Shown in pieces: positions 1-26,699 of a DNA stretch of 64,000 nt. The notes below the pieces were generated by a model. The model worked only from the letters and a program-made list of their open reading frames with translations. It did not search any database and was not told the origin of the DNA. Source of the stretch: Candidatus Sungiibacteriota bacterium (GTDB taxonomy: Bacteria > Patescibacteriota > Minisyncoccia > Sungbacterales > SURF-37); the NCBI GenBank assembly GCA_016203665.1, contig JACQMJ010000005.1, positions 1,516-65,515 of the forward strand, in the 5' to 3' direction. Numbering within the stretch: position 1 is the stretch's first letter; every line of letters begins with the position of its first letter. Made by a program: the position numbers and the translations under genes.

Positions 1-879
1 TTTAGCGTGAACCGGCTGGTCCCTGATCCTTCCAATCCCGAAACCCTCTACCTCCTCACCGACGGCAATGGCCTCTGGGTTTCGCGCTCGCGGGGCGATC
101 TCTGGGCGCCGGTTCATGATCGCGCCGCCGTACTGGAACCAACGGCTAATGTCCTGGCCATGGCCGTGAATCCGAGTGATCGGCGCGAATGGTACGTTGC
201 TGTATTCCAGCAAAATCGCGGCCGCGTGCTGCGCACTTCTGATGGCGGCGAGACGTTCCGCGAAATTTACTTCACGCCCGGCGAGCGCTACGGCGTTTTT
301 GACCTTTACTATGATCGCCTCCGCGGGAGCCTGGTTATTGCCACGGGCCAGGGCGGGCTCCTGGAAACAAGCGACCGCGGCCTGACGTGGCGAGTGGTGA
401 GGTGGTTTGCCGACGGGCTGGTACGCCTGCTCGCGGACCCCTCTAACCCGGCCAACTGGTACGTTATGACGCCGCGCGGCAGTATATTCCGTACGTTTGA
501 CCGCGGCGGTACGTGGACCGATGTAACCGATTCATTAAGAGAATTTTCCGGGGCGTTTAGTCGTCAGTACTGGACCATTGACCGCTCGGGCACGCTCTTC
601 GCCGGATCGCGCTACGGCCTCGTGCGCTCCAGCGACAACGGAACGACGTTTGCCGCCCCGCCGCTCATCATCCCGCCCGACGCTTTGCCGGTGCGCGCGG
701 TGGCCGTGGATCCGCGTGTCCCGGGCCGCATTATCGCCTCGGCCGCGAGCCAGCTCTACGGCAGCGTGGATGGCGGCGCGTCGTGGATCATATTGACGCC
801 CCCGAGCGAAAACCCCATCACGCATCTTTTGATTGATGCCGAGAAGTCGCAGACGCTCTACCTCGTGGCACAGCCATAG
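1..879 (+). CDS. BNR/Asp-box repeat beta-propeller protein (Ycf48/sialidase-like); 5' end probably outside window
   Basis: Five spaced S-x-D-x-G-x-T-W/F motifs (TSDGGETF, TSDRGLTW, TFDRGGTW, SSDNGTTF, SVDGGASW); frame is open to position 1. Confidence 0.7.
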   Translation, partial: FSVNRLVPDPSNPETLYLLTDGNGLWVSRSRGDLWAPVHDRAAVLEPTANVLAMAVNPSDRREWYVAVFQQNRGRVLRTSDGGETFREIYFTPGERYGVFDLYYDRLRGSLVIATGQGGLLETSDRGLTWRVVRWFADGLVRLLADPSNPANWYVMTPRGSIFRTFDRGGTWTDVTDSLREFSGAFSRQYWTIDRSGTLFAGSRYGLVRSSDNGTTFAAPPLIIPPDALPVRAVAVDPRVPGRIIASAASQLYGSVDGGASWIILTPPSENPITHLLIDAEKSQTLYLVAQP

Positions 880-982
880 ATGAAATTCCAAATGACAAAT
901 TCCAAATTGCAAAATTGTTTGGAATTTCAGATTTTTGTTCTTTTGTGATTCGGTGCTTGTAATTTGGGATTTGAAGAGCTCC

Positions 983-1525
983 ATGACTGATTTGCGCTCA
1001 AAACTCGACAAAGTTCTGGCCGGCCTCAAGGGCGACATCTCCTCCCTCCGCACTGGCCGCGCCACGCCCGCGCTTGTCGAGGATATCGCGGTTGAGGCCT
1101 ACGGCTCGCGCCAGCCCCTAAAGGCCCTTGCCGCCATTTCTATACCCGAGCCAAGGCAGATCGTTATTCAGCCGTGGGACAAGTCGCTCCTGCCGGCGGT
1201 GGAGAAAGCCATCCAGTCCTCCGCCCTTGGCATAAATCCCGTTGCCGACAAGGATATTATCCGCATTGCTATGCCCACGCTCACCGAGGAGCGCAAGCGC
1301 GATCTTGTGAAGTTATTGAAAGAGAAGCTCGAGAACGCGCGCATTCACGTGCGCCGGATACGGGACGAGGCGATGAAGGCGATAGAGGCCGAAGAAAAAG
1401 CCAAAGCCATTTCCGAGGACGAAAAATTCCGCAAAAAGCAGGAAACCGAGAAAGCGGTGGGGGAATGCAACAAAAAGATCGAAGAAACCGGCGCGTCCAA
1501 GGAGCGCGAGATCATGGCCGGATAG
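983..1525 (+). CDS. frr: ribosome recycling factor
   Basis: Frr-like throughout (LRTGRATPALVEDIAVEAYG, IQPWDKS, MPTLTEERKRDL); ATG 983 preferred over ORF-track start 935. Confidence 0.95.
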   Translation: MTDLRSKLDKVLAGLKGDISSLRTGRATPALVEDIAVEAYGSRQPLKALAAISIPEPRQIVIQPWDKSLLPAVEKAIQSSALGINPVADKDIIRIAMPTLTEERKRDLVKLLKEKLENARIHVRRIRDEAMKAIEAEEKAKAISEDEKFRKKQETEKAVGECNKKIEETGASKEREIMAG

Positions 1526-1526
1526 C

Positions 1527-2255
1527 ATGTTGAAGCAGCAGAGGCTGGCTGAAGTTCTGCTCGCGCGTAAGGCGGTCCATAGCGAGCGCGAGGCCTTTGT
1601 CATCGTTACGGAAGGCCGCGTTTACGTGAACGGCCAAAAAGCCATTTCGCCCGGACAGACGGTGAGCGATAGCGACGTTATTGAAGTGCGGGCCGGCCGG
1701 GAATTCGTAGGACGCGGAGCGCAAAAACTCGACGCCGCGCTCCGCGAGTTCAACATTGATGTCCGCGGGGCCGTGTGCGCCGATGTAGGTGCGGCTACTG
1801 GCGGGTTCACGGAAGTGCTTCTGAAGCATGGCGCGGCCAAGGTGTATGCCATTGATACCGGCCGCGGCAAACTTGATCTGAAACTGCGGCAAGACCCTCG
1901 CGTGGTGGTCATGGAAGAAACGAATGTGCTTGCCATGCCGCCGCTGCCGGAGCTGGTCGGGCTTATAAGTATCGATGTTTCACTGACATCGCTCCGCTTC
2001 GTACTGCCGAAAATACTGCCGTGGCTTTCCAGAGGCGGCTCGGTTGTCGCGCTCTTCAAGCCGCAATATGAAGTGGAAGATAAATCGCTCCTCGAGCATG
2101 GCATTCTCCGCGATGTGGCGGCTCGCGCCAAGCTTGTCGGAGCATTTCGCACCTGGCTAAAGGAGCACGGCTGGCGCGAGTTAGGGTTCATGGAGTCGCC
2201 CATCCGCGGCAGCGAGGGGAACGTGGAGTATTTATGGCATCTCGTGTCGGTATGA
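1527..2255 (+). CDS. tlyA: TlyA-family rRNA (cytidine-2'-O)-methyltransferase
   Basis: S4-like N-terminus plus FtsJ-type SAM motif DVGAATGGFTEVLL; starts 1 nt after frr stop. Confidence 0.88.
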   Translation: MLKQQRLAEVLLARKAVHSEREAFVIVTEGRVYVNGQKAISPGQTVSDSDVIEVRAGREFVGRGAQKLDAALREFNIDVRGAVCADVGAATGGFTEVLLKHGAAKVYAIDTGRGKLDLKLRQDPRVVVMEETNVLAMPPLPELVGLISIDVSLTSLRFVLPKILPWLSRGGSVVALFKPQYEVEDKSLLEHGILRDVAARAKLVGAFRTWLKEHGWRELGFMESPIRGSEGNVEYLWHLVSV

Positions 2256-2770
2256 ATCTCTTTAGTAGCCGAGTCTTTGTTGCCGAAACTGGCTCTCGCG
2301 GTCGTGGTGTCTTTGCGAAAGCACACATCACTACTGGTGAAGTATTCGATTTTTCCGACGAATCTTGGAAGTTGACCGAAGCAGATACGGTAAAAACATT
2401 ACCGAGAAAACTTCTTTGTTTATGTTGCGAATACGAACACGATCCTCGATTTATGGTATGTCCCACCGACTTTACTGCTCCACCGATAAGCCATATTGTG
2501 AATCACTCCTGCGATCCAAATATGGCGTCAACTGATAACTATGAAACGGTAGTAACTCTTCGCAACATCTCGCCAGGAGAGGAGCTGACATTCGATTATG
2601 CGACATTTAACACCGGCACTGATGAGTTCTATTGCACCTGTGGTGCAGCTTGTTGTCGTGGCTATGTAACCGGTATGGATTGGAGAATCCCTTCTTTGCA
2701 GGAGCGCCTCTCTGGTTACTTTCAGAAAAACATTCAAGAAAAGATTGACGCGCTGAAGCGGCAAGGATAA
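2252..2770 (+). CDS. SET-domain protein (putative protein-lysine methyltransferase)
   Basis: GRGVFA, NHSCDPN and ELTFDY SET motifs plus Cys-rich post-SET CTCGAACCRG; ATGA overlap with tlyA stop. Confidence 0.8.
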   Translation: MNLFSSRVFVAETGSRGRGVFAKAHITTGEVFDFSDESWKLTEADTVKTLPRKLLCLCCEYEHDPRFMVCPTDFTAPPISHIVNHSCDPNMASTDNYETVVTLRNISPGEELTFDYATFNTGTDEFYCTCGAACCRGYVTGMDWRIPSLQERLSGYFQKNIQEKIDALKRQG

Positions 2771-2781
2771 AATTCCCTTTT

Positions 2782-3858
2782 ATGCTTCTGACCATCCTCA
2801 TTTTCATCATTCTTCTCGGTGCGCTCGTGCTCGCGCATGAGTGGGGGCACTTTTTCGCCGCACGCCGCTTCGGCGTACGCGTGGAGGAGTTCGCTTTCGG
2901 CTTCCCGCCGCGCGTCGCAAGTTTTGTACGCAAGGGCACGCGCTACGCCTTGAACTTCATTCCCATTGGCGGATACGTGAAGATCTACGGCGAGTCCGGC
3001 GGGGATGGGCGCGATCCCGAAAGCTTCAGCTCGCGGCCGCTTTTCCAGCGCTTTGCCATTATCGCGGCCGGCGTTGCCATGAACGTTGTCTTGGCTTGGG
3101 CGCTCTTCTCTACCGGCCACGGCATCGGCCTGCCGACGGTGGTCGGTGAGGGCGAGATGGCGGCCGGCGCGGCGGTAACTATTATTGGCGTAGCGCCGGA
3201 TTCGCCGGCCGAGCGGGCCGGGCTTGAATTCGGCGATGTCATTAAAGAGGTCAAAAGCCGAACGTCAAATGCCAAAATCGAGCGCCTGGAGGATGTCCAA
3301 AAATTCATTGATGCGCATCGCGGCGAGGAGGTTATCTTTCAGTTGAAGCGCGGACGGGAGTTGATGGAACGCACGGCAGTCGCCCGCAGGGAGCCGCCGC
3401 CGGGCGAAGGCGCGGTCGGCATCGCCATGGCAGATGTCGGCATCGTGCGCTCGCCTTGGTGGCGGGCGCCGTGGGATGGAGCCAAAACAACGATGAGCGC
3501 CGCCGTAGCCATTACGACCGCCCTCGGCCGTACGGTGCGCGATCTTTTCAGCGAGGGCCGGCTGGCCGCCGAAGTATCCGGTCCGGTCGGCATATTCGTG
3601 TTCGCGAACGAGTCGCGGCGGCTTGGCATCGCCTATTTATTGGAGCTCGCTGGCATACTTTCGGTGAACTTGGCGCTATTGAATATTCTGCCGATCCCCG
3701 CGCTCGACGGGGGACGCATACTCTTCCTTTTTATTGAAGGCGTGCGCGGGGTCAAAATGAACCAGCGCCTTGAGCAGGCCATCCACACCGTCGGCTTCGC
3801 GCTCCTCATCCTCTTGATGGCGGCCATCACGTACCGGGATGTAGTGAGGATTTTTTAA
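2782..3858 (+). CDS. rseP: RIP (site-2) zinc metalloprotease, M50 family
   Basis: HEWGH in first TM helix, PDZ-like middle region, C-terminal NILPIPALDGG motif. Confidence 0.9.
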   Translation: MLLTILIFIILLGALVLAHEWGHFFAARRFGVRVEEFAFGFPPRVASFVRKGTRYALNFIPIGGYVKIYGESGGDGRDPESFSSRPLFQRFAIIAAGVAMNVVLAWALFSTGHGIGLPTVVGEGEMAAGAAVTIIGVAPDSPAERAGLEFGDVIKEVKSRTSNAKIERLEDVQKFIDAHRGEEVIFQLKRGRELMERTAVARREPPPGEGAVGIAMADVGIVRSPWWRAPWDGAKTTMSAAVAITTALGRTVRDLFSEGRLAAEVSGPVGIFVFANESRRLGIAYLLELAGILSVNLALLNILPIPALDGGRILFLFIEGVRGVKMNQRLEQAIHTVGFALLILLMAAITYRDVVRIF

Positions 3859-4035
3859 GTATTTGTCCTCCTCCTTTGACTTCCATCCCTGGCCATGCTA
3901 CCGTCCCCCTTGGGAGTTAAAAGCTCCCTAAAGGTCATCTTATCGTATCGAATACCGTCGTTTTACGAAGTATCAGGTGCTACGAATGCGTAGTATTCCA
4001 AGTTCGTAAAATAGTGCGTATTCGCAGCACCAATA

Positions 4036-4251
4036 ATGTATCAGCGAGACAACACCGCCGGCTTTGGGCCGCGACCGATGTTTACGCCCAAGGATGGCGT
4101 CTCCTGGACCTGCGCACAGTGCGGGGCCGAGATCACGGAACTGCCGTTCCAGCCGCGAACGGACGAGAACGGCGTTCCGACCTCTCCCCTTTACTGCCGC
4201 ACCTGCCACCGCGCACGGATGCAGGACGCAGGCCCCCGGCGACGGTACTAA
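4036..4251 (+). CDS. small zinc-ribbon protein (CxxC...CxxC)
   Basis: CAQC and CRTC pairs around an ELPFQP segment; followed by a clean terminator. Confidence 0.55.
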   Translation: MYQRDNTAGFGPRPMFTPKDGVSWTCAQCGAEITELPFQPRTDENGVPTSPLYCRTCHRARMQDAGPRRRY

Positions 4252-4262
4252 ACCCGTCAGCG

Positions 4263-4296
4263 CAAATCCCCGGATGGAACCGGGGATTTGTGTTTG
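4263..4296 (+). terminator. Rho-independent terminator
   Basis: AAATCCCCGG-atggaa-CCGGGGATTT followed by GTGTTTGG. Confidence 0.7.
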
Positions 4297-4427
4297 GAGT
4301 ATTTTCAGTTACCATTTGGGGACCACTTTTAAATTACAAACCACAAGCATTAAATTCCAAACAAGCCCAAAATTCAAAATTCCCACGCCGTTTGTAATTT
4401 GGAATTTGTTGTTTGGGGTTTTGCCCT

Positions 4428-5666
4428 ATGGATTTCTACGATTACCTCATCATCGGCAACGGCATTGCCGGCGCAACGGCGGCCGAGACCATTCGGGAGC
4501 GCGACCCTGCCGGGTCAGTTGCCGTAATTTCCGACGAGCCGCACCCGCTCTACTCGCGGGTGCTGCTGCCGAACTACGTGAAAGGGCTTGCCGCGCGCGA
4601 GCAGGTTTTTCTGCGCAAACGCGATGACTACCAGGCAAAAAACATTATGCTTCTTCAAGGCGAGTCTGCAGTTCGGCTCGCGGTGAGGGAGCGCATCCTG
4701 CACCTCGCCGGCGGCCGGACCATTGGCTTCGGCAAACTTTTGATCGCCAGCGGCGGCCGGCCGCGGCCGCTTGATGTTCCAGGCGGGGAGCTTTTGGGCG
4801 TATCGCGCTTCCAGACTATTAATGATGCCGATTTGATGCGCCAATTCCTGGCCGGCGCCAATCGCGCCGTTGTTGTCGGCGGCGGCTTCATCGCGCTGGA
4901 ATACCTTGAGATTTTAGTGTATTGCGGCATCCCGGCGACGCTCGTCATCCCGCAGCCATATTTTTTCAGCCGGTTTTTTGATGCGGCGGGCGGGGAGCTG
5001 CTGCAGGATAACTTTCGGCGCCACGGCATTGCCGTAATTGCGGGCGAGCGCCTGGCGGCCATTGAAGGGGAGAACCGGGTGCGGGCAGTGCGGCTTGCCA
5101 ACGGCAGAACGCTGGATGCCGATTTCCTCGGCATCGGCATAGGACTTGTGCGCAATACGGCGTGGCTCGGCGCGGGCGTTCTCCTCACCGGGGAAGGCGT
5201 TGCCGTCAACGAATACCTTGAAGCGTCGGAGCCCGGAATATTCGCCGCCGGCGACGTCGCCGATTTCAACGACATTATCCTCGGCTTTCGGCACAGCCAC
5301 GGCAACTGGGGCAATGCCTTTCGCCAGGGCGATTGCGCCGGCCGCAACATGGCTCGTCCGGCCGAGCGCGAACCCTACCAAAGCGTCACCTCCTACGGCA
5401 TCAGGAGCCTGGGCCTTCTGGTAGCACTCGTCGGTTATGCGTCCAATGGGCCGGGCATTGAGACCATCAGCCGGCTTGACCGTAAAGGACCGGCATATGG
5501 GCGGTACTTCCTTAAAGAAGGGCGGCTGGTCGGCGCCGCTCTTATCAACCGCCACGAGGAGCGGCCGGCCATCCAGGCGCTCATCAAGAGCGGCGAGCGC
5601 ATGAGTGATGCGGCATTGGCTGGGCTGGCGGATCCGAAATTTGACATTGCCGCGCTCACTCCCTAG
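4428..5666 (+). CDS. FAD/NAD(P)-dependent pyridine nucleotide-disulfide oxidoreductase
   Basis: IIGNGIAGATAA FAD fold, VVVGGGFIALE second dinucleotide fold, FAAGDVA motif; ATG 4428 preferred over TTG 4413. Confidence 0.8.
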   Translation: MDFYDYLIIGNGIAGATAAETIRERDPAGSVAVISDEPHPLYSRVLLPNYVKGLAAREQVFLRKRDDYQAKNIMLLQGESAVRLAVRERILHLAGGRTIGFGKLLIASGGRPRPLDVPGGELLGVSRFQTINDADLMRQFLAGANRAVVVGGGFIALEYLEILVYCGIPATLVIPQPYFFSRFFDAAGGELLQDNFRRHGIAVIAGERLAAIEGENRVRAVRLANGRTLDADFLGIGIGLVRNTAWLGAGVLLTGEGVAVNEYLEASEPGIFAAGDVADFNDIILGFRHSHGNWGNAFRQGDCAGRNMARPAEREPYQSVTSYGIRSLGLLVALVGYASNGPGIETISRLDRKGPAYGRYFLKEGRLVGAALINRHEERPAIQALIKSGERMSDAALAGLADPKFDIAALTP

Positions 5667-5675
5667 ATTTGCATC

Positions 5676-6398
5676 ATGAGCGATTCGACGACATCCGGAC
5701 AAGAGAGTTCAAAATTTTTGATTCCGGGCGCCATTGTTGTCGCCGGCGTGGTGATTGCCGGAGCCGTGCTCTATGGCGGCGGCTTACGAAATACACCCGC
5801 CGGCGGCAGCAGTGCGCCTCCTCCGGCAGTCGCGGCCGGCTCGCTCGCTGATGACGACCCGAGCCTCGGCGATCCGTCGGCCCCGGTAACGTTCGTCGAA
5901 TTCGGCGATTTCCAGTGCCCCTTTTGCAATAGCTTTTTCCGCGAGGCCGAGCCCGAGATTATTGAGCGTTATGTGAAGACCGGCAAGGTGCGCTTCGTTT
6001 ACCGCGACTTCGCGTTTCTGGGTGAGGAATCAGTCCGGGCGGCCGAGGCGTCCGAGTGCGCCGATGAGCAGGGGAAGTTCTGGGCCTATCATGATCGCTT
6101 GTACAATTTCATCTGGGACAACTACTACGCCAAGAACGAGTCGGGCGAGAACGTCGGCGCCTTCGCGGAGGCGAACCTGAAGCGCCTGGCGGCCGATAGC
6201 GGTTTGGATGCGGGGGCGTTCGCCGAGTGCCTATCCAGCCGGCGCTACCGGGCCGAGGTGGAGAAAGACATTGCCGACGGCCGCGCCGCCGGGGCGTCCG
6301 GCACGCCAACGGCCTTTATTAACGGTAAGATGATTGTCGGGGCACTGCCCTTTGGTCAGTTCCAGACGGCCATTGAGGCGGCGCTCGCCGGCAAATAG
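5676..6398 (+). CDS. DsbA-family thiol:disulfide oxidoreductase, membrane-anchored
   Basis: N-terminal TM helix then thioredoxin-fold active site FGDFQCPFC. Confidence 0.8.
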   Translation: MSDSTTSGQESSKFLIPGAIVVAGVVIAGAVLYGGGLRNTPAGGSSAPPPAVAAGSLADDDPSLGDPSAPVTFVEFGDFQCPFCNSFFREAEPEIIERYVKTGKVRFVYRDFAFLGEESVRAAEASECADEQGKFWAYHDRLYNFIWDNYYAKNESGENVGAFAEANLKRLAADSGLDAGAFAECLSSRRYRAEVEKDIADGRAAGASGTPTAFINGKMIVGALPFGQFQTAIEAALAGK

Positions 6399-6464
6399 GG
6401 CCGTGCTCCGAGCCGTGCACTTGACGCGTATCTTATACTGGAAATATAGGTAAATCATAAAACC

Positions 6465-6704
6465 ATGGCCAAGCACGTGAAAATATACACCACTCCGACC
6501 TGCGTCTACTGCCGGATGACGAAGCAGTTTTTTGAGGCCAATAACATCGCCTATGAGGAGTTGAATGTCGCTGCCGACGCCCGGGCTCGCGAGGAGATGA
6601 TTACGAAGTCGGGCCAGTTCGGCGTGCCGGTCACCGATGTTGACGGCCAGCTCGTCATCGGCTTTGACCAGGCGCGGCTTTCGGAGCTTCTGGAGATCAG
6701 GTGA
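6465..6704 (+). CDS. glutaredoxin/NrdH-like small redoxin
   Basis: KIYTTPTCVYC active site and GVPV motif in a 79-aa thioredoxin fold. Confidence 0.8.
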   Translation: MAKHVKIYTTPTCVYCRMTKQFFEANNIAYEELNVAADARAREEMITKSGQFGVPVTDVDGQLVIGFDQARLSELLEIR

Positions 6705-7279
6705 ACGACATGGCCAACGGGCAGCTGCCATCGGAGCGTGACCAGCGTATTGCCGCCGCAGGGCGGCGGCGGCTTTTGAGAAGTGCGTTATGGATTGGGA
6801 TCGCAGTTCTCGTTGTTGCCGGCGGCGGCTACGGCCTTATCCGCTACAGCCGCGAGCAATCAGTGCATCTGCCGGGTGTTGCCATTCCCGATCAGGGCCG
6901 GCAGCACGCGGCCTTGGGCACGCCCTTTGAATATAATTCCAATCCCCCGACTTCCGGCCCGCATTTTGACAATCCCGAAGAGTGGGGGATATTCCGCAAG
7001 GAAATACCGGATCAAATCATGGTCCATAATTTGGAGCACGGCGGCGTCTGGATCAGCTACCGGCCCGGCATCGCCACGAGCACCATTGAGCGGCTGGAGG
7101 CCCTTGGGCGCGAATTCGGCCGGAAAGTCATAATGGCGCCTCGCCAGGCCAATGACAGCGATATCGCGCTCGCGGCATGGACGCGGCTTGATAAATTTTC
7201 AGAGAGCGAATTCTCGGAGGAAAGGGTGCGCGATTTTGTCCGGGCCTGGCGCAATAAGGGACCGGAATTCGTTCCGTAA
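6701..7279 (+). CDS. DUF3105-like membrane-anchored protein
   Basis: TM helix; PPTSGPH and HNLEHGG motifs; GTGA overlap with preceding gene. Confidence 0.65.
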   Translation: MNDMANGQLPSERDQRIAAAGRRRLLRSALWIGIAVLVVAGGGYGLIRYSREQSVHLPGVAIPDQGRQHAALGTPFEYNSNPPTSGPHFDNPEEWGIFRKEIPDQIMVHNLEHGGVWISYRPGIATSTIERLEALGREFGRKVIMAPRQANDSDIALAAWTRLDKFSESEFSEERVRDFVRAWRNKGPEFVP

Positions 7280-7360
7280 AATTCAGCATGATGAATGCTG
7301 AATGGAGAATAGTCGGATTCGTCATCTATCATTTGGCATTCATCATTTAGCATTCCTTTC

Positions 7361-8362
7361 ATGTACGACCTCATCATCATAGGCGGAGGACCCGCTGCCG
7401 TCGGCGCCGGCGTCTATGCCGCGCGGAAAAAGCTGAAAACTCTGCTCGTTACCGAATCCTTCGGCGGGCAGTCCATTACCTCGGATTCGATTGAGAACTG
7501 GATCGGCGAGAAGTCGATTAACGGTTTTGATCTGGCGAAAAAGCTGGAGGAGCATGTTCGCGCCCAGTCATCCCTTGAGATTAAGATGCCGGAGCGCGTT
7601 ACCGCGGTGCGGGAGATCCCGTGCGTCGGCGATCCCGCCGCCGGATCGGCCAAGCGCTCCTGTGACTTTGAGACGGAGACGAATACCGGCGGCCGCTACC
7701 AGTCGAAAGCCGTCATCGTGACTTCCGGCTCGCGGCGGCGGAGGCTGGGCGTGCTCGGCGAGGAAAAATTTGAGGGTAAGGGCGTGGCGTTCTGCAGCAC
7801 GTGTGATGCTCCCATATTCGCCGGGAAGCGCGTGGCCGTCGTGGGCGGCGGAAACGCCGGGCTTGAGGCGGTGGTAGATCTCTTCCCGTATGCCGCGGAA
7901 ATTTATTTGCTGCACCGCGGGGGCGATCTCAAAGGCGACCCGGTGACCCAGGAAGAAATTAAGGCGAACTCCAAAGTTAGCGTCATCCTGAATGCCGAGG
8001 CCCAGGAGATTTTAGGCGATCAGTTCGTGACAGGCCTCGCCTATAAAGAAACGAAGATGGGGGAAATCAAGAAATTGGACGTGGACGGCGTTTTCGTGGA
8101 GATTGGCGCCGTACCGAATTCCGAAATCGTGAAGGGCATGGTGGAACTGAACCCCTACGGCGAGATCGTCATTGACCACCGCACTTCCCAAACCTCGAAG
8201 ACGGGCGTGTTCGCCGCCGGGGATGTCACGGACGAGCTTTACAAGCAGAATAATATTTCCGTGGGCGATGGCATTACCGCCGCGCTCTCGGCTTACAACT
8301 ACATACTGGGCCTGAAAAAGCAGACCGTAGCCGCCGAGAAACCGAACGGATCGACCATCTAA
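7361..8362 (+). CDS. thioredoxin-disulfide reductase-like flavoprotein
   Basis: IIIGGGPAA FAD motif, CSTC redox disulfide at the TrxB CATC position, VVGGGNAG NADPH motif, AAGDV. Confidence 0.8.
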   Translation: MYDLIIIGGGPAAVGAGVYAARKKLKTLLVTESFGGQSITSDSIENWIGEKSINGFDLAKKLEEHVRAQSSLEIKMPERVTAVREIPCVGDPAAGSAKRSCDFETETNTGGRYQSKAVIVTSGSRRRRLGVLGEEKFEGKGVAFCSTCDAPIFAGKRVAVVGGGNAGLEAVVDLFPYAAEIYLLHRGGDLKGDPVTQEEIKANSKVSVILNAEAQEILGDQFVTGLAYKETKMGEIKKLDVDGVFVEIGAVPNSEIVKGMVELNPYGEIVIDHRTSQTSKTGVFAAGDVTDELYKQNNISVGDGITAALSAYNYILGLKKQTVAAEKPNGSTI

Positions 8363-8409
8363 ACACGATCGCGGTTATTTTGTTTAGTTGAAATTAGGAG
8401 GATTTTACT

Positions 8410-8820
8410 ATGGATATACTGCGCAAATTTCATCCTCTCTGGGCCCTCCGGATCGGCCTCGGCCTCATGTATGTCTATTCCGGCACTTCGCTTATACGCC
8501 AGCCGCTTGATTGGCAGGGGTTTTTGCCGCCGTGGTTCGGTGACTTCGTCGGCCGGTTTATGCCATTGCCGACGTACTTTGCGATCCAGGGAGCGGGGGA
8601 ATTGGTCATGGCTGCCGTGTTTATCCTGCCGTTAGTGCCGCTTTATGTCGTTCGCATCGCGGCCGTTGCTGCAGCGCTTGAGTTTGCCGGCATCCTTCTC
8701 TTCACCGGCCTTGATCTCGTTACCTTTCGCGACATCGGGCTTCTTGGGGCGGCGGTCGCGTTGGTCGTGATGTCGTCCGTAAGGCTCGAGAATAATAAAA
8801 ATCCCTTCAGGCGGCCATAA
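8410..8820 (+). CDS. DoxX-like integral membrane protein (tentative)
   Basis: About four TM helices, no catalytic motif; last gene of the redox cluster. Confidence 0.45.
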   Translation: MDILRKFHPLWALRIGLGLMYVYSGTSLIRQPLDWQGFLPPWFGDFVGRFMPLPTYFAIQGAGELVMAAVFILPLVPLYVVRIAAVAAALEFAGILLFTGLDLVTFRDIGLLGAAVALVVMSSVRLENNKNPFRRP

Positions 8821-8826
8821 ATCAAG

Positions 8827-10089
8827 ATGGCAACATTTTTTGAGCAAACTCGGGCGAGCGTTGAGCGCGCGGCAGCGGCGCTCGGCTTGAGCGCGAATGC
8901 GGTCTCGGCGCTTCAAAAGCCCCAGCACGTGCATGCCTTTGATCTGCCGCTTCCGTTGGAGAACGGAGAAACGCGTATCTTCAAGGCCTGGCGTGTACAG
9001 CACAACGATGCCCGCGGGCCCTATAAGGGCGGCATCCGTTTCCATCCGGATTCGAATCTCGATGAGGTCGAGGCGCTGGCTTCGCTCATGACCTGGAAGA
9101 CCTCGCTTGTCGGTATTCCGTATGGCGGGGCCAAGGGCGCGGTGACTGTGGATCCGAAGCAGCTCTCGCCAAAGGAGTTGGAAGCGGTGTCGCGGAGCTA
9201 TGTGCGCAGGCTCTTTGATGTCATTGGCCCGAAGCGCGACATTCCCGCGCCGGATGTCGGAACAACGCCGCAGGTCATGGCCTGGATGGTGGATGAATAT
9301 TCCAAGCTGGCCGGGCAATATGAGCCCACGGCCTTTACCGGCAAACCCGTTGAGATCGGCGGCTCTTTTGGCCGCGACACGGCAACCGGTTTTGGCGGAG
9401 CGGTTATCCTGCGTGAATTCCTAAAGGCTAAAAAGCTAAAAGCTAATGGCCTGTCTGTGGCCATACAGGGCTTCGGCGCGGTCGGCTCGGCCATGGCGCG
9501 GCTTCTGGCAAAAGAGGGCTACCGTATTGTCGCGCTTTCAGATTCGCGAGGGGCGATCTATGATCTTAACGGCATTGATGTTGAGGAAACCATTCGCATC
9601 CAAGAGGAGCGGGGCCTGGTTAATCAACGGCCCTGCTCCTTGGAGGAGGCCTCGAGCGGCAAATGCCGCGTTTTGACCAATGCAGAGCTACTTGAACTTG
9701 AAGTTGATATTTTGATTCCCGCCGCCTTGGAGAATGTAATCAACGAGTCAAACGCTGGACGACTAAAGACGAAAGTTATTTTAGAAATGGCCAACGGGCC
9801 GGTGAGCGCCGAGGCCGATGCACTACTCGCGGCACGGGACATAAGCGTTATCCCCGATATCCTGGCCAACTCCGGCGGCGTGGTAGGCTCTTATTTTGAA
9901 TGGGTGCAGGGGCTGACGCGCTTTTATTGGGAGGAGGATGAGGTACTCTCGCGTATTGAGAAGATCATGGCCAAGGCCTTTAGTGCCGTGGCCGCGGAGC
10001 AAGCCAAGGGCGGAACGTGGCGTGAAGCATCGTATCGCATGGCTGTCGGCCACGTGGCCGATGCCATGCGTCTTCGCGGCTGGCTTTGA
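8827..10089 (+). CDS. gdhA: Glu/Leu/Phe/Val-family (glutamate) dehydrogenase
   Basis: KGGIRFHP...GIPYGGAKG catalytic region and GFGAVG dinucleotide fold. Confidence 0.92.
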   Translation: MATFFEQTRASVERAAAALGLSANAVSALQKPQHVHAFDLPLPLENGETRIFKAWRVQHNDARGPYKGGIRFHPDSNLDEVEALASLMTWKTSLVGIPYGGAKGAVTVDPKQLSPKELEAVSRSYVRRLFDVIGPKRDIPAPDVGTTPQVMAWMVDEYSKLAGQYEPTAFTGKPVEIGGSFGRDTATGFGGAVILREFLKAKKLKANGLSVAIQGFGAVGSAMARLLAKEGYRIVALSDSRGAIYDLNGIDVEETIRIQEERGLVNQRPCSLEEASSGKCRVLTNAELLELEVDILIPAALENVINESNAGRLKTKVILEMANGPVSAEADALLAARDISVIPDILANSGGVVGSYFEWVQGLTRFYWEEDEVLSRIEKIMAKAFSAVAAEQAKGGTWREASYRMAVGHVADAMRLRGWL

Positions 10090-10093
10090 GATA

Positions 10094-10129
10094 CAAAAAA
10101 ACGGGGAGAACGCCGCTATGTTCTCCCCG
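10094..10129 (-). terminator. Rho-independent terminator (U-tract on minus strand)
   Basis: CGGGGAGAAC-8 nt-GTTCTCCCCG preceded on + strand by A7. Confidence 0.65.
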
Positions 10130-10400
10130 CGGTCTGACGGCGTCGGGCGGCTTGCAGGTCGCCGTTTCGGAGGTGAAGGACGCCGGCGCTCGCGATGATC
10201 TCGAGCGCTTCGGATGTCTTTTCCCGCACTATGCAGACGCGGTACTCCTGGATTGCTTTGATGATGATGGAGCCAAAGGCGGCGAGGCACGTTCCCGAGC
10301 CGAAGGCGATGGCCAGAGGCAGGAAGTGCGGTGCATGGAGCCATACGGCCGCCGGAATCGCGCAGGCAAGGAAGAGGAGCAAGGACGCGGCCACGTTCAT
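10116..10400 (-). CDS. small hydrophobic membrane protein
   Basis: GGAGG 8 nt upstream of ATG 10400; two hydrophobic segments; terminator overlaps the 3' end. Confidence 0.5.
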   Translation of the reverse strand: MNVAASLLLFLACAIPAAVWLHAPHFLPLAIAFGSGTCLAAFGSIIIKAIQEYRVCIVREKTSEALEIIASAGVLHLRNGDLQAARRRQTAGRT

Positions 10401-10445
10401 GGGCGGCCTCCACTGAATGGGAGTTCGTGCTATGATGTATAGTGC

Positions 10446-10556
10446 ATGAAACCGGCAAAAATTGCAATCAATGGTTTCGGACGCACCCCGCACCGATCCC
10501 GCTTGCAGCGGGATGGTGCGGGGCGAGAGTCGGCATGCGGCAATCAGTTGTTCTGA
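10446..10556 (+). other. 36-codon upstream ORF whose first 13 codons re-encode the GAPDH N-terminus (MKPAKIAINGFGR), then a bulged 16-bp hairpin (10486-10523)
   Basis: Direct translation; KIAINGFGR is identical to gap codons 3-11, yet 8 of the 9 codons differ synonymously. Confidence 0.6.
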
Positions 10557-10564
10557 AGTAGACT

Positions 10565-11599
10565 ATGGTGAAAATAGCTATAAACGGCTTTGGGAGAATT
10601 GGCCGCTCGTTTTTCCGCGCCGCGTTCGCCTCGCCCGCCGTAGCTTCAGCGGAGGCGGGGCCGCCGGAGTTTGATATAGTAGCCGTGAACGACCTGGCCG
10701 ATCCCCAGACACTCGCCTACCTCCTGAAGTACGACTCGGTCTACGGCCGCTACGCTAAAAGTGTGGAGGCGGCCTCGGGCGGGCTCATCGTGGATGGCAC
10801 GCCCGTAGGCGTGCTCGCGGAAAAGGAGCCGGCGCGGCTTCCTTGGGCGAACCTTGGCGTTGACATAGTTGTTGAATCCACCGGGTTCTTCACGGACGGC
10901 GCGCGGGCGAGGGCGCACCTCGGCGCCGGCGCCAAGAGGGTGGTCATCACCGCTCCGGCGAGCGGAGAGGTGACGACGGCGCTCATCGGCGTCAATGATG
11001 ACAGGTTCGCCGAATCCGGGCCGCTCACCTGCAATGCCTCCTGCACCACGAACTCCGTGGCCCCGGTGCTCCAGATACTCCTCGAGCGCCTCGGCATCAA
11101 GAAAGCCGGCATGATCACGGCCCACGGTTACACCGCGAGCCAGAAACTCGTGGATGGTCCCGACGGTAAAGACCCGCGCCGAGGCCGGGCCGCGGCCGTG
11201 AACATCGTGCCTTCCACCACCGGCGCGGCCGAAGCCGTGATCCAGGCCATCCCCGCGCTTGAGGACAGGTTCAATGCCGTGGCCATCCGCGTGCCGACCA
11301 TCACCGGATCGCTCTCGGTCGTAACAGCCCTCCTCGAGCAGCAGACGACGGCAGCGAATGTGAACGCCATCTTCGAGCAGGCATCGAAAGATCCGCGCTG
11401 GTCGAAAATATTTAAGGTTACGCACGAGCCGATCGTATCCACCGACATCATCGGCGAGCCCTATGGCGCCATACTAGACGCCGCGCTAACGAAAGTTACG
11501 GGCGGAGATCTGGTGCAGGTATTCTCCTGGTACGACAACGAGGCCGGTTATACTGCGACCCTTATTGAGCACGTGCGGCGGGTTGCGGCGAACCTATAG
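10565..11599 (+). CDS. gap: type I glyceraldehyde-3-phosphate dehydrogenase
   Basis: INGFGRIGR NAD fold, catalytic ASCTTN, WYDNE C-terminal motif. Confidence 0.95.
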   Translation: MVKIAINGFGRIGRSFFRAAFASPAVASAEAGPPEFDIVAVNDLADPQTLAYLLKYDSVYGRYAKSVEAASGGLIVDGTPVGVLAEKEPARLPWANLGVDIVVESTGFFTDGARARAHLGAGAKRVVITAPASGEVTTALIGVNDDRFAESGPLTCNASCTTNSVAPVLQILLERLGIKKAGMITAHGYTASQKLVDGPDGKDPRRGRAAAVNIVPSTTGAAEAVIQAIPALEDRFNAVAIRVPTITGSLSVVTALLEQQTTAANVNAIFEQASKDPRWSKIFKVTHEPIVSTDIIGEPYGAILDAALTKVTGGDLVQVFSWYDNEAGYTATLIEHVRRVAANL

Positions 11600-11617
11600 C
11601 TATTTAGATATTTTAGT

Positions 11618-12886
11618 ATGCGCCAGTCGAGTTTATTCGGAAAAACGTTTCGCGAGGATCCCAAGGATGAAGTTTCCATAAATGCCCGCCTGCTGGAGCG
11701 GGGCGGTTTTGTGTATAAGACCATGGCCGGGGCATACGACTATTTGCCCCTGGGATACCGCGTTCTTGAAAAGATAAATAAGGTTATTCGGGAGGAGATG
11801 AATGCCATCGGCGGGCAGGAACTCCTCTTGACCGCGCTCCAGCCTAAGGATCGTTGGATGAGATCCGGCCGCTGGGAGACGCTCTCCGAGATCATGTACC
11901 AGTTCAAGGATCATTCCGGCCGCGAGGTCGGACTGGCGGCCACGCATGAGGAGCCCATGGCCGAGATAGCAACGCGTTCAATTTTTTCCTACAAGGACCT
12001 GCCGCTTTTCGTATATCAGATCCAGACGAAATTTCGCGACGAGCCGCGGGCCAAATCCGGCCTGATACGCGGCCGCGAGTTTTTGATGAAAGATCTCTAT
12101 AGTTTTCACCGCGATGAGCGCGATCTTGACCGCTTCTACGCCAAAGCCGACCGGGCCTACCAGAAAATTTTCAGGCGCCTCGGCCTGAAATTTTTCGTGA
12201 CCGAGGCATCCGGAGGAACGTTTACCAAACAGTTCACGCACGAGTACCAAGTGCTTTCCGAGGCCGGTGAGGACCATATCCTCTACTGCGAGCGCTGCCG
12301 CTACGCCCAAAATCAGGAGATCACGACCATGCGTATCGGCACGAAATGTCCCAAGTGCGCGAAAGGCGAGATCGGGGCCGGCAAATCCATAGAAATAGGC
12401 AACATCTTCAAGCTCGGGACGAAGTTTTCGGTTGCCTTCGGTCTCACCTACGCCGACGAGCAGGGGATGAGGCACCCGGTTATCATGGGCTCTTACGGCA
12501 TTGGCCCGGGCCGGCTCATGGCGACCATTGTAGAGGTGTCGCACGATGAGCGCGGCATCATCTGGCCCGAGGCTGTTGCGCCCTACTGGGTGCACCTCGT
12601 TGAGGTTAAAAGTGAAAAGGGAAAAGTGAAAGGTGCCGCCGAGGCGCTCTACAAGAAGTTACTCGCCGCGGACGTGGAAACGCTCTACGATGATCGCGAT
12701 GACAAATCTGCCGGTGAAAAATTCGCTGATGCCGACCTCATCGGCATCCCGTGGCGCGTGGTGGTGTCGGAGCGCACGCTTCGCGAGCGCGGTGTGGAGG
12801 TAAAGCGGCGAAGCGAGGCGCGGGCTAAAACCGTGTCGGTTAAGGAAGCGGAAAAACTCATTAGGAGATCAAAAAAGCCGGATTGA
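11618..12886 (+). CDS. proS: proline--tRNA ligase, short form without INS editing domain
   Basis: Class II motif 2 FRDEPRAKSGLIRGREFLMKD, bacterial-type N-terminus, anticodon-binding C-terminus; 422 aa. Confidence 0.88.
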   Translation: MRQSSLFGKTFREDPKDEVSINARLLERGGFVYKTMAGAYDYLPLGYRVLEKINKVIREEMNAIGGQELLLTALQPKDRWMRSGRWETLSEIMYQFKDHSGREVGLAATHEEPMAEIATRSIFSYKDLPLFVYQIQTKFRDEPRAKSGLIRGREFLMKDLYSFHRDERDLDRFYAKADRAYQKIFRRLGLKFFVTEASGGTFTKQFTHEYQVLSEAGEDHILYCERCRYAQNQEITTMRIGTKCPKCAKGEIGAGKSIEIGNIFKLGTKFSVAFGLTYADEQGMRHPVIMGSYGIGPGRLMATIVEVSHDERGIIWPEAVAPYWVHLVEVKSEKGKVKGAAEALYKKLLAADVETLYDDRDDKSAGEKFADADLIGIPWRVVVSERTLRERGVEVKRRSEARAKTVSVKEAEKLIRRSKKPD

Positions 12887-12893
12887 CTGTGAG

Positions 12894-13433
12894 TCAACCG
12901 GCTGGTGCGCTCCGGCAATTCCGGAAGCGGATGAGGGCGTGGATGAAGGCGCGCCGGATATAAAGAAACATGGCTCCGGCCAGCACGACGACGCTTACCG
13001 CGAAGAAGGCGGTAAAGTAATAGACCGCGGTTGCCTGTCCTCCTACGCTGAACATGACGATGAAGGCGTGAGGGTCCCGGATGAAGAGTCCCGCCGCGAG
13101 TCCGAGACCGGCGCCGCAGATGATGTTCCAGCCGCAATAGGAAAGTTCGGTCCCGAGGCGGCCGCCTGATCCGGGAGCGATGAGCATTGCGCCGAGGTGA
13201 ACCGTGAAGGCGGTGACGGCGATGGAGAAGAAAGCCAGCATCGCCATGTCGGCGCTCGCGAGCGAACTGCGAAGATTATGCTCCTTCGCGAGGAGGATCG
13301 CGGCGAGGATAAGGCCGGCGGCGTTTAGGAAAAGAGAGGCGGCGCGGAAGACCGTGCGGCGGCGGCCCGGCACGCTTGCCGGCTGGACTCTGACGCCCCG
13401 CTTAACGAAGGAGAGTGTCGTGGTTCCCTGCAT
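12894..13433 (-). CDS. multi-pass membrane protein, unknown function
   Basis: Four to five hydrophobic helices from internal ATG 13433; the upstream part of the ORF looks non-coding. Confidence 0.5.
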   Translation of the reverse strand: MQGTTTLSFVKRGVRVQPASVPGRRRTVFRAASLFLNAAGLILAAILLAKEHNLRSSLASADMAMLAFFSIAVTAFTVHLGAMLIAPGSGGRLGTELSYCGWNIICGAGLGLAAGLFIRDPHAFIVMFSVGGQATAVYYFTAFFAVSVVVLAGAMFLYIRRAFIHALIRFRNCRSAPAG

Positions 13434-13636
13434 CTTTCGGCCTCCTTTCGGGTGGTGTCCGTTTTTCGCGGGTTGGTTCTCCGTAGCGGTCGTAGGCGGG
13501 TTTCTGGAGGTCCATACTATCCTCCGAAGGCTTTCGAATATTGGCCCGGCATGGGGTTGTTTTTCTGGAGTGCTGGTGCTATAGCTAAATATACTCTTGG
13601 CGGTCTGGGGCACCTATTTGAGATATTCACCATGCC

Positions 13637-13744
13637 ATGTTGAACAAACTCTTCGGACTATTTTTCAAAGACTCCGCACCGGAACCTTCGGTTCGGTACG
13701 GGGCAGGCATCGGCATCAATCTCAATTCCATTCATGCTGAATAA
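13637..13744 (+). other. 35-codon upstream ORF re-encoding the MreB N-terminus (MLNKLFGLFFKD...IGINL), split by a 36-nt hairpin insert (13673-13708)
   Basis: Direct translation; 14 of 17 alignable residues are identical to MreB with 8 synonymous codon changes; the stop overlaps the mreB ATG. Confidence 0.6.
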
Positions 13745-14789
13745 ATTTTTTGGTCTCTTTTCGAAAGATATCGGCATTGATCTGGGGACGGCGAATTCCC
13801 TAGTCTACGTGCGCGGCCGCGGCATTGTCATCAATGAGCCCTCGGTCGTGGCCGTGAACCAGAAGACCGGGCAGGTGGTGGCCATCGGGCAGGAGGCCAA
13901 AAAAATGGTCGGCCGCACGCCCGGCCATATTTCCGCCATCCGGCCGCTGGTGGAAGGCATCATCTCGGATTTCGAGGTGACCGAGGAGATGCTCCGCTAT
14001 TTCATACAGAAGGTTCACAACGGCTCGATGAGCGTTATGCCGCGGCCGCGCGTCGTCATCGGCATTCCCTCGGAGGTTACCGAGGTGGAGCGGCGGGCCG
14101 TGGAGGACGCGGTGAAAAACGCCGGCGCGCGCGAGGTCTTTCTAGTTGAGGAGCCGATGGCGGCGGCCATCGGCGTGCGCTTGCCGGTGCAGGATGCGGT
14201 TGGGTCCATGATCGTGGACATCGGCGGCGGCACCGCGGACATCGCGGTCATTTCGCTAGGCGGTATCGTCGTTTCCAAAAATTTACGCATTGCCGGCGAC
14301 CGGCTTAATGAGGACATCATCCGCTTCGCACGCGATGAGTACAAGCTGCTCCTCGGCGAGCGGACGGCTGAGGATTTGAAAATTGCCATCGGCTCGGCTT
14401 GCGAGCTTGATGAGCCAATGGAGGCCACCATGCGCGGCCGCGATCTTGTAACCGGCCTGCCGAAGGAGGTGGTCGTGGATGATGCGGAAATCCGGCGGGC
14501 CATGAAACATTCCCTTTCCGCGCTCATCGCCGCCATCAAATCCACCATTGAGGCCACGCCGCCTGAACTGGTGGCCGACATCATGCACCGCGGCATCGTG
14601 CTCGTCGGCGGCGGATCGCTGCTGCGCGGGCTTGACCAGGTCATTGCCGAGGAGACCCGGATACCGGTGGAGTTGGCCGAGGATCCGCTGACAGCGGTGG
14701 TGCGCGGCACGGGCGCCATCCTGGAGGATTTGGATGGCCTGACCGAGGTGCTTGTCAGTGCGGAGTACCAGAAGGCGCCCACAGTATAA
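13734..14789 (+). CDS. mreB: rod shape-determining protein MreB
   Basis: Actin-fold motifs IGIDLGTANS, VIGIPS, DIGGGTAD, VLVGGGSLL. Confidence 0.96.
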   Translation: MLNKFFGLFSKDIGIDLGTANSLVYVRGRGIVINEPSVVAVNQKTGQVVAIGQEAKKMVGRTPGHISAIRPLVEGIISDFEVTEEMLRYFIQKVHNGSMSVMPRPRVVIGIPSEVTEVERRAVEDAVKNAGAREVFLVEEPMAAAIGVRLPVQDAVGSMIVDIGGGTADIAVISLGGIVVSKNLRIAGDRLNEDIIRFARDEYKLLLGERTAEDLKIAIGSACELDEPMEATMRGRDLVTGLPKEVVVDDAEIRRAMKHSLSALIAAIKSTIEATPPELVADIMHRGIVLVGGGSLLRGLDQVIAEETRIPVELAEDPLTAVVRGTGAILEDLDGLTEVLVSAEYQKAPTV

Positions 14790-18685: not shown

Positions 18686-18804
18686 CCCCGTTACAACCCG
18701 GCCTGAAGGCCCCGTTAGAGGTCCGCACCAGAGGCGCGGCAGACGCCTGCGGCGTCTTGCTTCTAACGGGGCCTGAAGGACGGGGCGTCCGGGTTGTAAC
18801 GGGG
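18686..18804. mobile_element. 119-bp MITE-like nested inverted-repeat element
   Basis: Perfect 16-bp termini CCCCGTTACAACCCGG / CCGGGTTGTAACGGGG flanked by TGAA on both sides; inner 10-bp inverted repeat flanked by direct CCTGAAGG. Confidence 0.5.
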
Positions 18805-23792: not shown

Positions 23793-23858
23793 GAGCATAG
23801 ATTTTCAGCGGGAGCAGGTGAGTAAGATGAGTAGTAAGATGAGTAAATAGATAAAAAA

Positions 23859-23888
23859 ATCCAAATAGAAGCGATCGCTTATATTTGG
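23859..23888. repeat. 30-bp near-perfect palindrome, copy 1
   Basis: TCCAAATAGAAGCGATCGCTTATATTTGGA; 29 of 30 nt identical to copy 2. Confidence 0.9.
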
Positions 23889-23918
23889 AAATATTTGAGA
23901 TAGAATGAGTTTTACGGC

Positions 23919-24513: not shown

Positions 24514-24543
24514 TCCAAATATAAGCGATCGCTTATATTTGGA
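24514..24543. repeat. 30-bp perfect palindrome, copy 2
   Basis: TCCAAATATAAGCGATCGCTTATATTTGGA, 17 nt after the PaaX-like stop. Confidence 0.9.
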
Positions 24544-26638: not shown

Positions 26639-26699
26639 ATTCTCAAGTATAGCGGATGCGCGGCTATGAAAAACGGGCGCGGGAATATCCCGGACCCGT

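Follow-up and report, generated by a model that had tools for sequence, protein, structure and literature searches.

The gap and mreB loci

In a stretch of 64,000 nucleotides of contig JACQMJ010000005.1 from a Candidatus Sungiibacteriota bacterium (hereafter the window, whose first letter is position 1), a short open reading frame (ORF) that repeats the beginning of the gene itself and carries a GC-rich palindrome stands in front of each of two unrelated essential genes, gap and mreB. The functional gap gene, recognized by its Pfam domains Gp_dh_N and Gp_dh_C and by its homologs, encodes a GAPDH of 344 amino acids and occupies 10565–11599 on the forward strand. Upstream of it on the same strand lies a leader ORF of 36 codons (10446–10556), whose stop codon TGA (10554–10556) falls 8 nt 5′ of the main ATG; this distance, and the lack of any Shine–Dalgarno (SD)-like motif 5′ of 10565, can be read directly from the letters. 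The leader ORF opens with a stub (10446–10484, forward strand; MKPAKIAINGFGR) consisting of a start codon and codons 2–13, spelled ATG AAA CCG GCA AAA ATT GCA ATC AAT GGT TTC GGA CGC and followed by ACC CCG. The functional copy opens with ATG GTG AAA ATA GCT ATA AAC GGC TTT GGG AGA (protein MVKIAINGFGR), a second and complete N-terminus with ATA and AGA codons. As a first-pass annotation of this DNA had pointed out, the nine residues KIAINGFGR are the same in both copies, while their codons differ at 8 of the 9 positions, every change being synonymous.

Immediately after the stub comes a GC-rich palindromic insert (10485–10525, forward strand), A-CCCCG CACCG ATCCCGC ttgca GCGGGAT GGTG CGGGG-CG, identified by folding and by homologous inserts in relatives. 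The bulged hairpin at 10486–10523 folds as had been predicted, the 91-nt stretch that contains it reaching −42.6 kcal/mol (z = −3.35). Beyond the hairpin, gap-derived sequence resumes with AGA GTC GGC ATG CGG..., that is R-V-G-M-R, a decayed form of R-I-G-R-S-F-F; comparison with two related loci, L084 and L092, delimits this decayed remnant of gap codons 13/14–20 to 10526–10552 on the forward strand. Since gap sequence continues past the hairpin, the relic is, on this comparison, a ~20-codon 5′ fragment with the palindrome inside it, which refines the earlier idea of a displaced 5′ end. The remnant is in frame in L084 (RVGMRRLFV), and L092 has RVGY...; the insert of the window, at 40 nt, has lost 1 nt of its loop relative to L084, and the reading frame is therefore lost 3′ of the insert. 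The 3′ flank of the insert, at 10524–10533, forms a conserved block, C(G/A)AGAGTCGG, and CRAGAGTCGG is kept in the window, L084 and L092 despite saturated flanking synonymous sites.

Nothing resembling an intrinsic terminator was found in 10300–10700, the gap hairpin being followed by CGAGAGTCGG without a T-tract, and scans for canonical −35/−10 promoters and for terminators had no match at the gap leader. Searches with Rfam at gathering thresholds returned 0 matches across the whole window, and permissive E-values on 10300–13900 added nothing relevant, with chance-level matches only (E ≥ 0.9); a search for tRNA and tmRNA genes found none. In minimum-free-energy folds no alternative pairing that takes in the main start is evident. 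The leaders of the window, L082 and L087 have a small hairpin that sequesters the main AUG via an ATA codon, a feature that is not general.

The same architecture had been noticed at mreB, and it is real. On the forward strand, a leader ORF of 35 codons (13637–13744) ends in a TAA (13742–13744) that overlaps the functional mreB gene (13734–14789; 351 amino acids, MLNKFFGLFSKD...), whose start has no SD motif and lies inside the end of the leader ORF. The leader is made of a stub (MLNKLFGLFFKD, 13637–13672), a 36-nt in-frame palindromic insert (13673–13708, hairpin 13672–13703), the residues IGIN (13709–13720, from the IGID of mreB) and 7 more codons. The design is conserved in L091 and L092: all three mreB leaders run from a 12-codon stub through a 36-nt in-frame palindrome (PAVEPSVHYGAG) into the four residues with which MreB itself continues, IGID (in the window IGIN), and those of L091 and L092 carry MLNRFFGLFSKD-PAVEPSVHYGA[GS]-IGID. 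At both genes, the upstream copy amounts to a 5′ fragment of 16–20 codons that encloses a palindromic element, with a complete second gene start after it. The gap and mreB leaders have in common the sequence CCGCACCG-stem-loop-GGTRCGGGGC..G..TCGGCAT.

A search with the hairpin pattern CCGCACCG-N8-25-GGTRCGG gave exactly 2 matches, at gap and at mreB, where 0.01 would be expected. Comparison of the window's open frames of 80 codons or more with the 400 nt upstream of each showed a duplicated N-terminus at gap and mreB only, and these matches are beyond chance. Scanning all the related loci collected, ~250 kb of DNA, likewise returned N-terminal duplications at gap and mreB only; judging from these loci, the design is not spread genome-wide, and they lend no support to a general mechanism.

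Promoters and starts in the window

Genes of the window mostly lack an SD motif, and many have a TANNNT element (often TGnTAnnnT) 4–12 nt before their ATG. An SD-like tetramer precedes only 8 of 40 ATG-start genes; TANNNT ends 4–12 nt before the ATG in 16 of these 40 as compared with 5.4% of all ATGs (p = 1e-10). These counts suggest that leaderless mRNAs may predominate in this Candidatus Sungbacteria genome, and these genomes seem to use an extended −10 element without a −35. At gap, the likelier −10 element is TG-c-TATGAT at 10428–10436 on the forward strand, read from the sequence and placed 9 nt 5′ of the upstream ATG in a leaderless-type layout, rather than the TATAGT 2 nt before that ATG that had first been proposed; its spacing matches that of other genes in the window, and elements of the TGnTAnnnT type also stand 5′ of the upstream gap ATG in relatives. 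A possible −10 element of mreB, GATATT (13622–13627, forward strand), likewise lies 9 nt 5′ of the upstream ATG and is a weak assignment read from sequence only; L092 has TATCAT 7 nt 5′ of its upstream mreB ATG. The main ATGs of gap and mreB, in contrast, have neither an SD motif nor a −10-like TANNNT element 5′ of them.

Occurrence in related genomes

At the DNA level, 13 gap loci and 6 mreB loci were compared, drawn from independent NCBI, ENA, Logan and JGI assemblies and cited here by L numbers; L085, L087 and L177 stem from Hainich groundwater. A scan of genome contigs turned up only a handful of close relatives, L002 and L003 being the useful ones among them. In L002, the closest uninterrupted relative found (78% protein identity), gap has just one start (MKPAKIAINGFGRIGRSFF), whose first 26 nt match 10446–10471 of the window letter for letter. 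L002, L090 and L177 all have one uninterrupted gap start, MKP[AV]KIAINGFGRIGR, and the consensus of relatives is MK(P/S)xKIAINGFGRIGR. Because uninterrupted relatives begin with the same sequence, the ATG at 10446 is, on comparative grounds, the ancestral and promoter-proximal gap start, interrupted after codon 13. To this extent the reading of the upstream copy as a displaced 5′ end stands: its ATG is orthologous to the start of these three relatives.

Among the 120 closest GAPDHs, 56 have a long N-terminus of the form MKxxKIAINGFGR and 42 a short one, MxKIAINGFGR, and the two classes are interleaved on a neighbor-joining (NJ) tree of 113 relatives that has no support values. An upstream stub precedes 8 of the 10 distinct short-class gap genes that were read as DNA; L086, also of the short class, has none. 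A hairpin of the same family is present in the gap leaders of the window, L084, L092 and L003. The L087/88 leader has a 126-nt palindrome in its place, and those of L082/83, L085 and L173–176 have a short or degenerate insert and no hairpin. Within the L087/L088 palindrome (1863–1988) a consensus extended −10 (TGCTATAAT) stands ahead of an ORF of 10 codons, and this insert may carry a promoter of its own. The mreB design is present in the window, L091 and L092 and absent in L090, L174 and L177, the 6 loci read. Upstream of mreB in L090 (9860–10000) there is no stub; a leader of ~80 nt following a TATACT box has a GC hairpin that is different (CTCCCGCCGG...CCACCGGTGGGG), together with an overlapping small ORF that begins ATGTTG, and may be a further-degenerated form of the mreB leader.

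Comparing the upstream regions of related genomes, as had been proposed, thus returned a leader that recurs, conserved, in at least 8 other Sungbacteria-like lineages; at least 9 gap lineages and 3 mreB lineages retain the design. A scan of metagenome contigs with a GAPDH alignment (patterns FSWYDNE and INGFGRIG) recovered only relatives of ≤57% identity, none of them with a stub, which weakly bounds the phenomenon to the Sungbacteria-like clade. The source being a metagenome-assembled genome, one could imagine that strain variants had been collapsed into a false tandem; such an artefact is scarcely credible given that NCBI, ENA, Logan and JGI assemblies hold the same architecture with lineage-specific sequence, and the design shared by independent assemblies excludes it.

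The Arg codon of GFGR in the functional copy is AGR in all 10 short-start genes and CGN in the 3 uninterrupted genes, and the Ile codons of functional short-start copies are mostly ATA. As AGR and CGR are one synonymous step apart and these sites are saturated, we take the AGR usage to reflect not shared descent but selection that keeps the internal start A-rich and unstructured.

Age, constraint and geometry

The leaders are old. Between gap lineages the proportion of differing synonymous sites (pS) in the gene body is 0.57–0.90, at or near saturation, and in the first 15 codons after the duplicated segment it averages 0.72 in pairs of interrupted genes. With synonymous saturation reaching up to the duplicated segment, nothing points to a cassette that spread recently, and neutral sequence would be expected to be random by now. 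The stub is not. Its gap codons 5–13 have a pS of 0.64 among the window, L084 and L092 and zero amino-acid replacements, and codons 5–8 have 0 nonsynonymous differences over 196 sites (21 pairs from 7 lineages); codons 2–4 vary freely, as they do in functional long-class genes. Between the mreB stubs of L091 and L092 there are 4 synonymous and 0 amino-acid changes at a gene-body pS of 0.74, the hairpin is identical at 34 of 36 nt, and IGID is kept with synonymous changes. Even where the insert is of the short type, stub tail and insert are identical at 37 of 38 aligned nt between L082 and L085 (gene-body pS 0.63), the next 14–16 nt beyond the insert being unrelated. The mreB stem has 2 compensatory pairs relative to the window (3 sequences, hence low power), and the gap insert of L092 has a wholly different inner stem that is still fully complementary; the gap and mreB hairpins are, by these signs, conserved as structures.

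The geometry of the leaders is also maintained. The distance from upstream to main ATG is 119, 120 and 119 nt in the long-type gap leaders of the window, L084 and L092, and 97, 97 and 94 nt at mreB. In 10 of the 11 leaders tabulated the leader stop lies within −11 to +10 nt of the main ATG: the offsets are −11, −6, +1, +10, +1 and +10 at gap, with an ATGA overlap in L003, and +8, +5 and +5 at mreB, the exception being the gap leader of L087 at −95. Stop and start overlap as ATGA in L085, L092 and L003. Leader length itself varies, with 21–53 codons in 8 further gap lineages and 33–35 in the three mreB lineages.

Several causes of the stub conservation were considered and rejected. Gene conversion between the gap copies does not fit, as the copies differ consistently at synonymous sites; an antisense gene does not, the annotated minus-strand gene ending at 10400; a divergent gene or promoter is missing from L084, L087, L090 and L092, whose stub or gene start is just as well conserved; and recency is contradicted by the saturated flanks and by the hairpin position and spacing that the leaders share.

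The near-saturated synonymous difference between two copies in a single genome invites another explanation, in which a foreign gap or mreB gene, together with the region upstream of it, was joined by homology on one side and illegitimately within codon 13 on the other, leaving the native stub behind. Such a xenologous replacement is very improbable. Leader, hairpin position and the 119/120/119-nt spacing recur across saturated lineages with conserved gene order; the post-hairpin sequence is itself a gap or mreB remnant, not foreign intergenic DNA; and the same insert family is found in both genes.

The palindromic elements

Palindromes of this kind occur at 4 sites in the window (10486, 13672, 18686/18710 and 25179; fold z −2.4 to −8) and constitute a family defined by its ends, A-CCCCG...CGGGGC-RRG, with variants: CTCCG at mreB, and no RRG extension in either copy between greA and lysS. 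The termini CCCCGCACCGAT...GGTGCGGGGCGAG are common to the window and L003 and nearly so to L084 and L087. They enclose interiors of ~20 to ~126 nt (L003 ~105, L087 126) that are unrelated in sequence yet complementary. The gap inserts of L084 (42 nt) and L092 (39 nt) are in frame, and the insert lengths 36, 39, 42 and 69 nt are all multiples of 3.

Outside the leaders, a related palindrome, CCCCGTTAG...CCGCACC..GGTGCGG...CTAACGGGGCAGG (25108–25179, reverse strand), sits in frame in a GT39/PMT-type glycosyltransferase ORF (24731–26872). This 69-nt GC-rich insert adds ~23 residues (PLVVRTVGAAAPTERRSLPLTGQ) to the protein; among the 60 closest GT39 homologs listed, 11 have an insertion of ~22 residues at YYNELA^GGT, and the near-identical pairs P0262/P0259 and P0250/P0263 differ solely by it. 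The spacer between greA and lysS holds nested palindromes (18686–18804, forward strand; 119 nt, −86.7 kcal/mol, z = −8) that look like one element inserted into another. The inner one (18710–18771) shares GTCCGCACC...GG.GCGGCAG with the GT39 insert and is flanked by a direct repeat of 8–9 nt, (G)CCTGAAGG, at 18701 and 18772, the only element at which a clear repeat of this length was seen. In relatives, GC-rich in-frame inserts (PPRSQSGRGSPSQGLG or APPRSLSGRG) are also found in the 3′ region of the glutamate dehydrogenase gene gdh, between KGG and TWREA (L085 ~1583–1640, L177 ~1116–1175, L089 ~1360–1400); they come with a diverged direct repeat of the flanking CCAAGGGCGGC and are absent in the window (gdh 8827–10089), L090 and L174.

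The family thus consists of hairpin-forming palindromes in several related copies, inserted in frame in some orthologs and missing from others, and the hairpin of the gap leader belongs to it. This further supports the relic part of the first-pass annotation, which had supposed that a palindromic element inserted into a displaced 5′ end. It also raises the possibility that the palindrome is a self-compensating mobile cassette, which repeatedly enters the 5′ ends of gap and mreB with, or creating, a recoded start; the essential gene would survive, and a cycle of gain, precise loss and lateral transfer of alleles would keep the stub "young". Short- and long-start GAPDHs interleave on the tree as such cycling would have it; insertion took place after codon 7, 8, 9 or 13 depending on the lineage; conserved termini surround interiors of very different length; near-identical orthologs (GT39, gdh) differ solely by in-frame palindromes; and one copy of the element has flanking direct repeats. 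However, synonymous saturation reaches right up to the cassette, the codons of the replacement start vary among lineages like those of the host genes, with no sign of recent spread, and the two copies in one genome are too diverged for a fresh target duplication. The tree, again, is without support values, and no transposase or endonuclease is associated with the element in the window, the only place where one was looked for. Class interleaving and varied insertion points are as compatible with repeated loss as with repeated gain, and we regard the cassette as a live minority hypothesis, unlikely on balance.

Some further features of the window and its relatives may be recorded here. A near-perfect palindrome in two copies (TCCAAATAnAAGCGA/TCGCTTATATTTGGA; 23853–23896 and 24514–24543) flanks an ORF of 192 residues (23919–24497) and may represent operator sites; in relatives a PaaX_M-domain gene of similar size (175–181 residues) lies between gap and proS. 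Related TTTGGAATTT palindromes are found at 890–934 and 4322–4421. In L092, a thioredoxin-reductase-like Pyr_redox_2 gene (2210–4360) encodes 716 residues with a faint Intein_splicing and a weak LAGLIDADG_3 match, as compared with the 333 residues of its window ortholog (7361–8362), which suggests that the L092 gene holds an intein.

A possible mechanism and its origin

Taken together, the evidence supports a combination of the two readings first offered for this locus, relic and functional leader ORF, each of which would be partly right. On the side of the leader ORF, the architecture is kept across synonymously saturated lineages without amino-acid change in the upstream codons, and the stop stays beside the main ATG; the hairpin proves dispensable in some lineages. 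We therefore consider it probable, if well short of certain, that a leaderless leader ORF derived from a partial 5′ duplication feeds the real gap start by termination–reinitiation.

As to the origin, an old partial tandem duplication, extending roughly from the −10 element to codon 20 of gap, would have left a promoter-proximal fragment of ~20 codons and a complete second start 119 nt downstream. A partial tandem duplication is suggested by the 5′ flank of the second gap ATG in the window (AAGTAGACT-ATG), which resembles the flanks of relatives' leaderless starts (AAGTAGTAT-ATG in L085). A palindromic element would then have lodged in the dispensable upstream copy, after codon 13. As to the present function, transcription may start at or just before the ATG at 10446, so that ribosomes would load on a 5′-terminal AUG, pass through the hairpin as they translate the 36 leader codons, terminate 8 nt short of the SD-less AUG at 10565 and reinitiate there. 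The mreB leader is built in the same way and would be read likewise, and the hairpin might be regulatory, for example as a protein-binding or ribosome-pausing site.

Such coupling would explain selection on the upstream ATG, on the open frame and on the position of the stop. A number of observations nevertheless weigh against it. First, coupling predicts no selection against missense changes, and it leaves the near-zero nonsynonymous divergence of the stub unaccounted for. Second, the hairpin is absent in L082, L085 and L174, and only a 3-codon mini-ORF is left upstream of gap in L089; neither hairpin nor long stub is, on these comparisons, indispensable. Third, in L087 the gap leader ORF stops 95 nt short of the main ATG, and the insert itself contains a second consensus promoter. 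Fourth, the differing insertion codons mean that a single origin of the whole design is not established. Finally, the window itself has signs of relaxed constraint, in the frameshift (a 1-nt deletion) of its gap insert and in the amino-acid changes of its mreB stub, which differs at 2 residues from its own gene and at 3 from L091 and L092.

Several of these observations are what would be expected if upstream copy and hairpin were slowly decaying debris and the main ORF were expressed independently. The post-hairpin part has decayed (RVGMRRLF, indels), the hairpin has been lost in three lineages, the L089 stub is cut to 2 codons, and in the window the gap insert is frameshifted and the mreB stub altered. 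A pure relic is unlikely all the same: neutral sequence would be randomised at this saturation, yet stub codons 5–13 change synonymously only; the base of the insert and CRAGAGTCGG are nearly invariant; the leader stop is beside the main ATG in all but one of the leaders; and the main ATG has no SD or −10-like element upstream.

A GC-rich hairpin directly after a duplicated peptide also calls to mind programmed translational bypass, known from T4 gene 60 and from the mitochondrial "byp" elements, the latter being likewise mobile GC-rich palindromes in coding regions. Bypass, or else splicing, would fuse the N-terminus of the upstream copy with the body of the gene, leaving out both the hairpin and the second start, and would give a protein beginning MKPAKIAINGFGRIGR... 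The codons at the supposed take-off and landing sites do not match (CGC and AGA in the window and L084; in L092 the preceding Gly is GGG and GGC), the frame relation is inconsistent among the three (difference 2, 0 and 2), there is no stop codon after the take-off site, the remnant 3′ of the hairpin runs into stop codons, and the second copy is a complete, conserved N-terminus with an ATG of its own. Given the codon mismatch and the inconsistent frames we reject programmed bypass and attach next to no weight to this explanation.

The termination–reinitiation reading leaves the protein-level conservation of the stub to be explained, and two bolder ideas, even taken jointly a long shot, address it: either the N-terminal mimic is itself the functional part, or the palindromes are a new class of selfish element. 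Under the former, the mature protein, a targeting factor or a chaperone may sense the nascent leader peptide, which matches the protein's own N-terminus, during its synthesis and so tune reinitiation, and this may amount to tubulin-like autoregulation in a bacterium. Under the latter, the palindromes may persist in essential genes not through splicing but because they create or bring along a recoded replacement start.

Relation to known systems

In mycobacteria, leaderless short ORFs that form the first cistron of polycistronic leaderless mRNAs control downstream genes (Canestrari et al., bioRxiv 10.1101/834739). The gap and mreB leaders resemble them in that the short first ORF runs in the direction of the gene, lies near it and is conserved in relatives, the start at the 5′ end of the transcript being inferred at gap. 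The dependence of downstream output on translation of the short ORF, a property of the mycobacterial system, may have its counterpart at gap. The modes of action would differ: the mycobacterial ORF senses cysteine via a poly-Cys tract and unmasks a sequestered ribosome-binding site, while the downstream start at gap has no SD motif, the proposed link is reinitiation, and the short ORF repeats, as a paralog, the N-terminus of the very gene that it precedes. The gap and mreB leader peptides listed, for which no formal test of codon composition was made, have no obvious sensory run of codons.

Termination–reinitiation works without an SD motif (Huber et al. 2019, PMC6728339). Here, too, the upstream stop overlaps the downstream ATG or lies within ~10 nt of it, L087 excepted, and the downstream start is SD-less. 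The process has been described between two bona fide genes, in contrast to an upstream partner that is a remnant, 21–53 codons long, of the downstream gene.

The closest parallel for the inserts may be the Rickettsia palindromic elements, intragenic miniature inverted-repeat transposable elements of ~100–150 bp that are inserted in frame in protein genes (PMC10969869). Like them, the GT39 and gdh elements sit in frame in unrelated genes, are tolerated as extra peptide and are patchy among orthologs. The likeness is one of behaviour. The elements described here are 36–126 nt long, very GC-rich and defined mainly by the ends CCCCG...CGGGGC-RRG; moreover, those of gap and mreB are located in a duplicated 5′ fragment, unlike an insertion into the functional copy.

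Two other types of system are worth comparing. Phages and islands that integrate into tRNA or protein genes can bring a replacement gene end, so that a displaced native end adjoins a diverged functional replacement, much as at gap. At gap, however, no integrase and no att core identity are found, the intervening DNA is only 40–170 nt, and the two copies seem to have evolved side by side in place over a long time. Classical leader-peptide attenuation, as in trpL and ermCL, similarly places a short leader and then a stable hairpin upstream of the regulated ORF; gap differs in having no terminator U-tract, no evident alternative pairing with the main start and no regulatory codons that were noticed.

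Significance

To our knowledge, bacteria of the candidate phyla radiation (CPR, or Patescibacteria) cannot be grown alone, and the control of gene expression in them is almost unknown. The present loci provide a comparative case in the CPR in which widespread leaderless-type starts, an SD-less internal start apparently fed by a leader ORF, and palindromes in coding regions akin to those of Rickettsia come together. On the practical side, gene callers split such loci inconsistently, giving GAPDH an N-terminus of either "MVK..." or "MKPAK...", which affects annotation and phylogenies. What is unusual is to find, at two unrelated essential genes, a leader ORF that is paralogous to the first codons of the gene itself and evolves under protein-level constraint. 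Should this constraint stem from function, it would point to a principle of regulation hitherto undescribed in bacteria; should it stem from the cycling of a mobile cassette, it would point to a new means by which selfish DNA can reside in essential genes.

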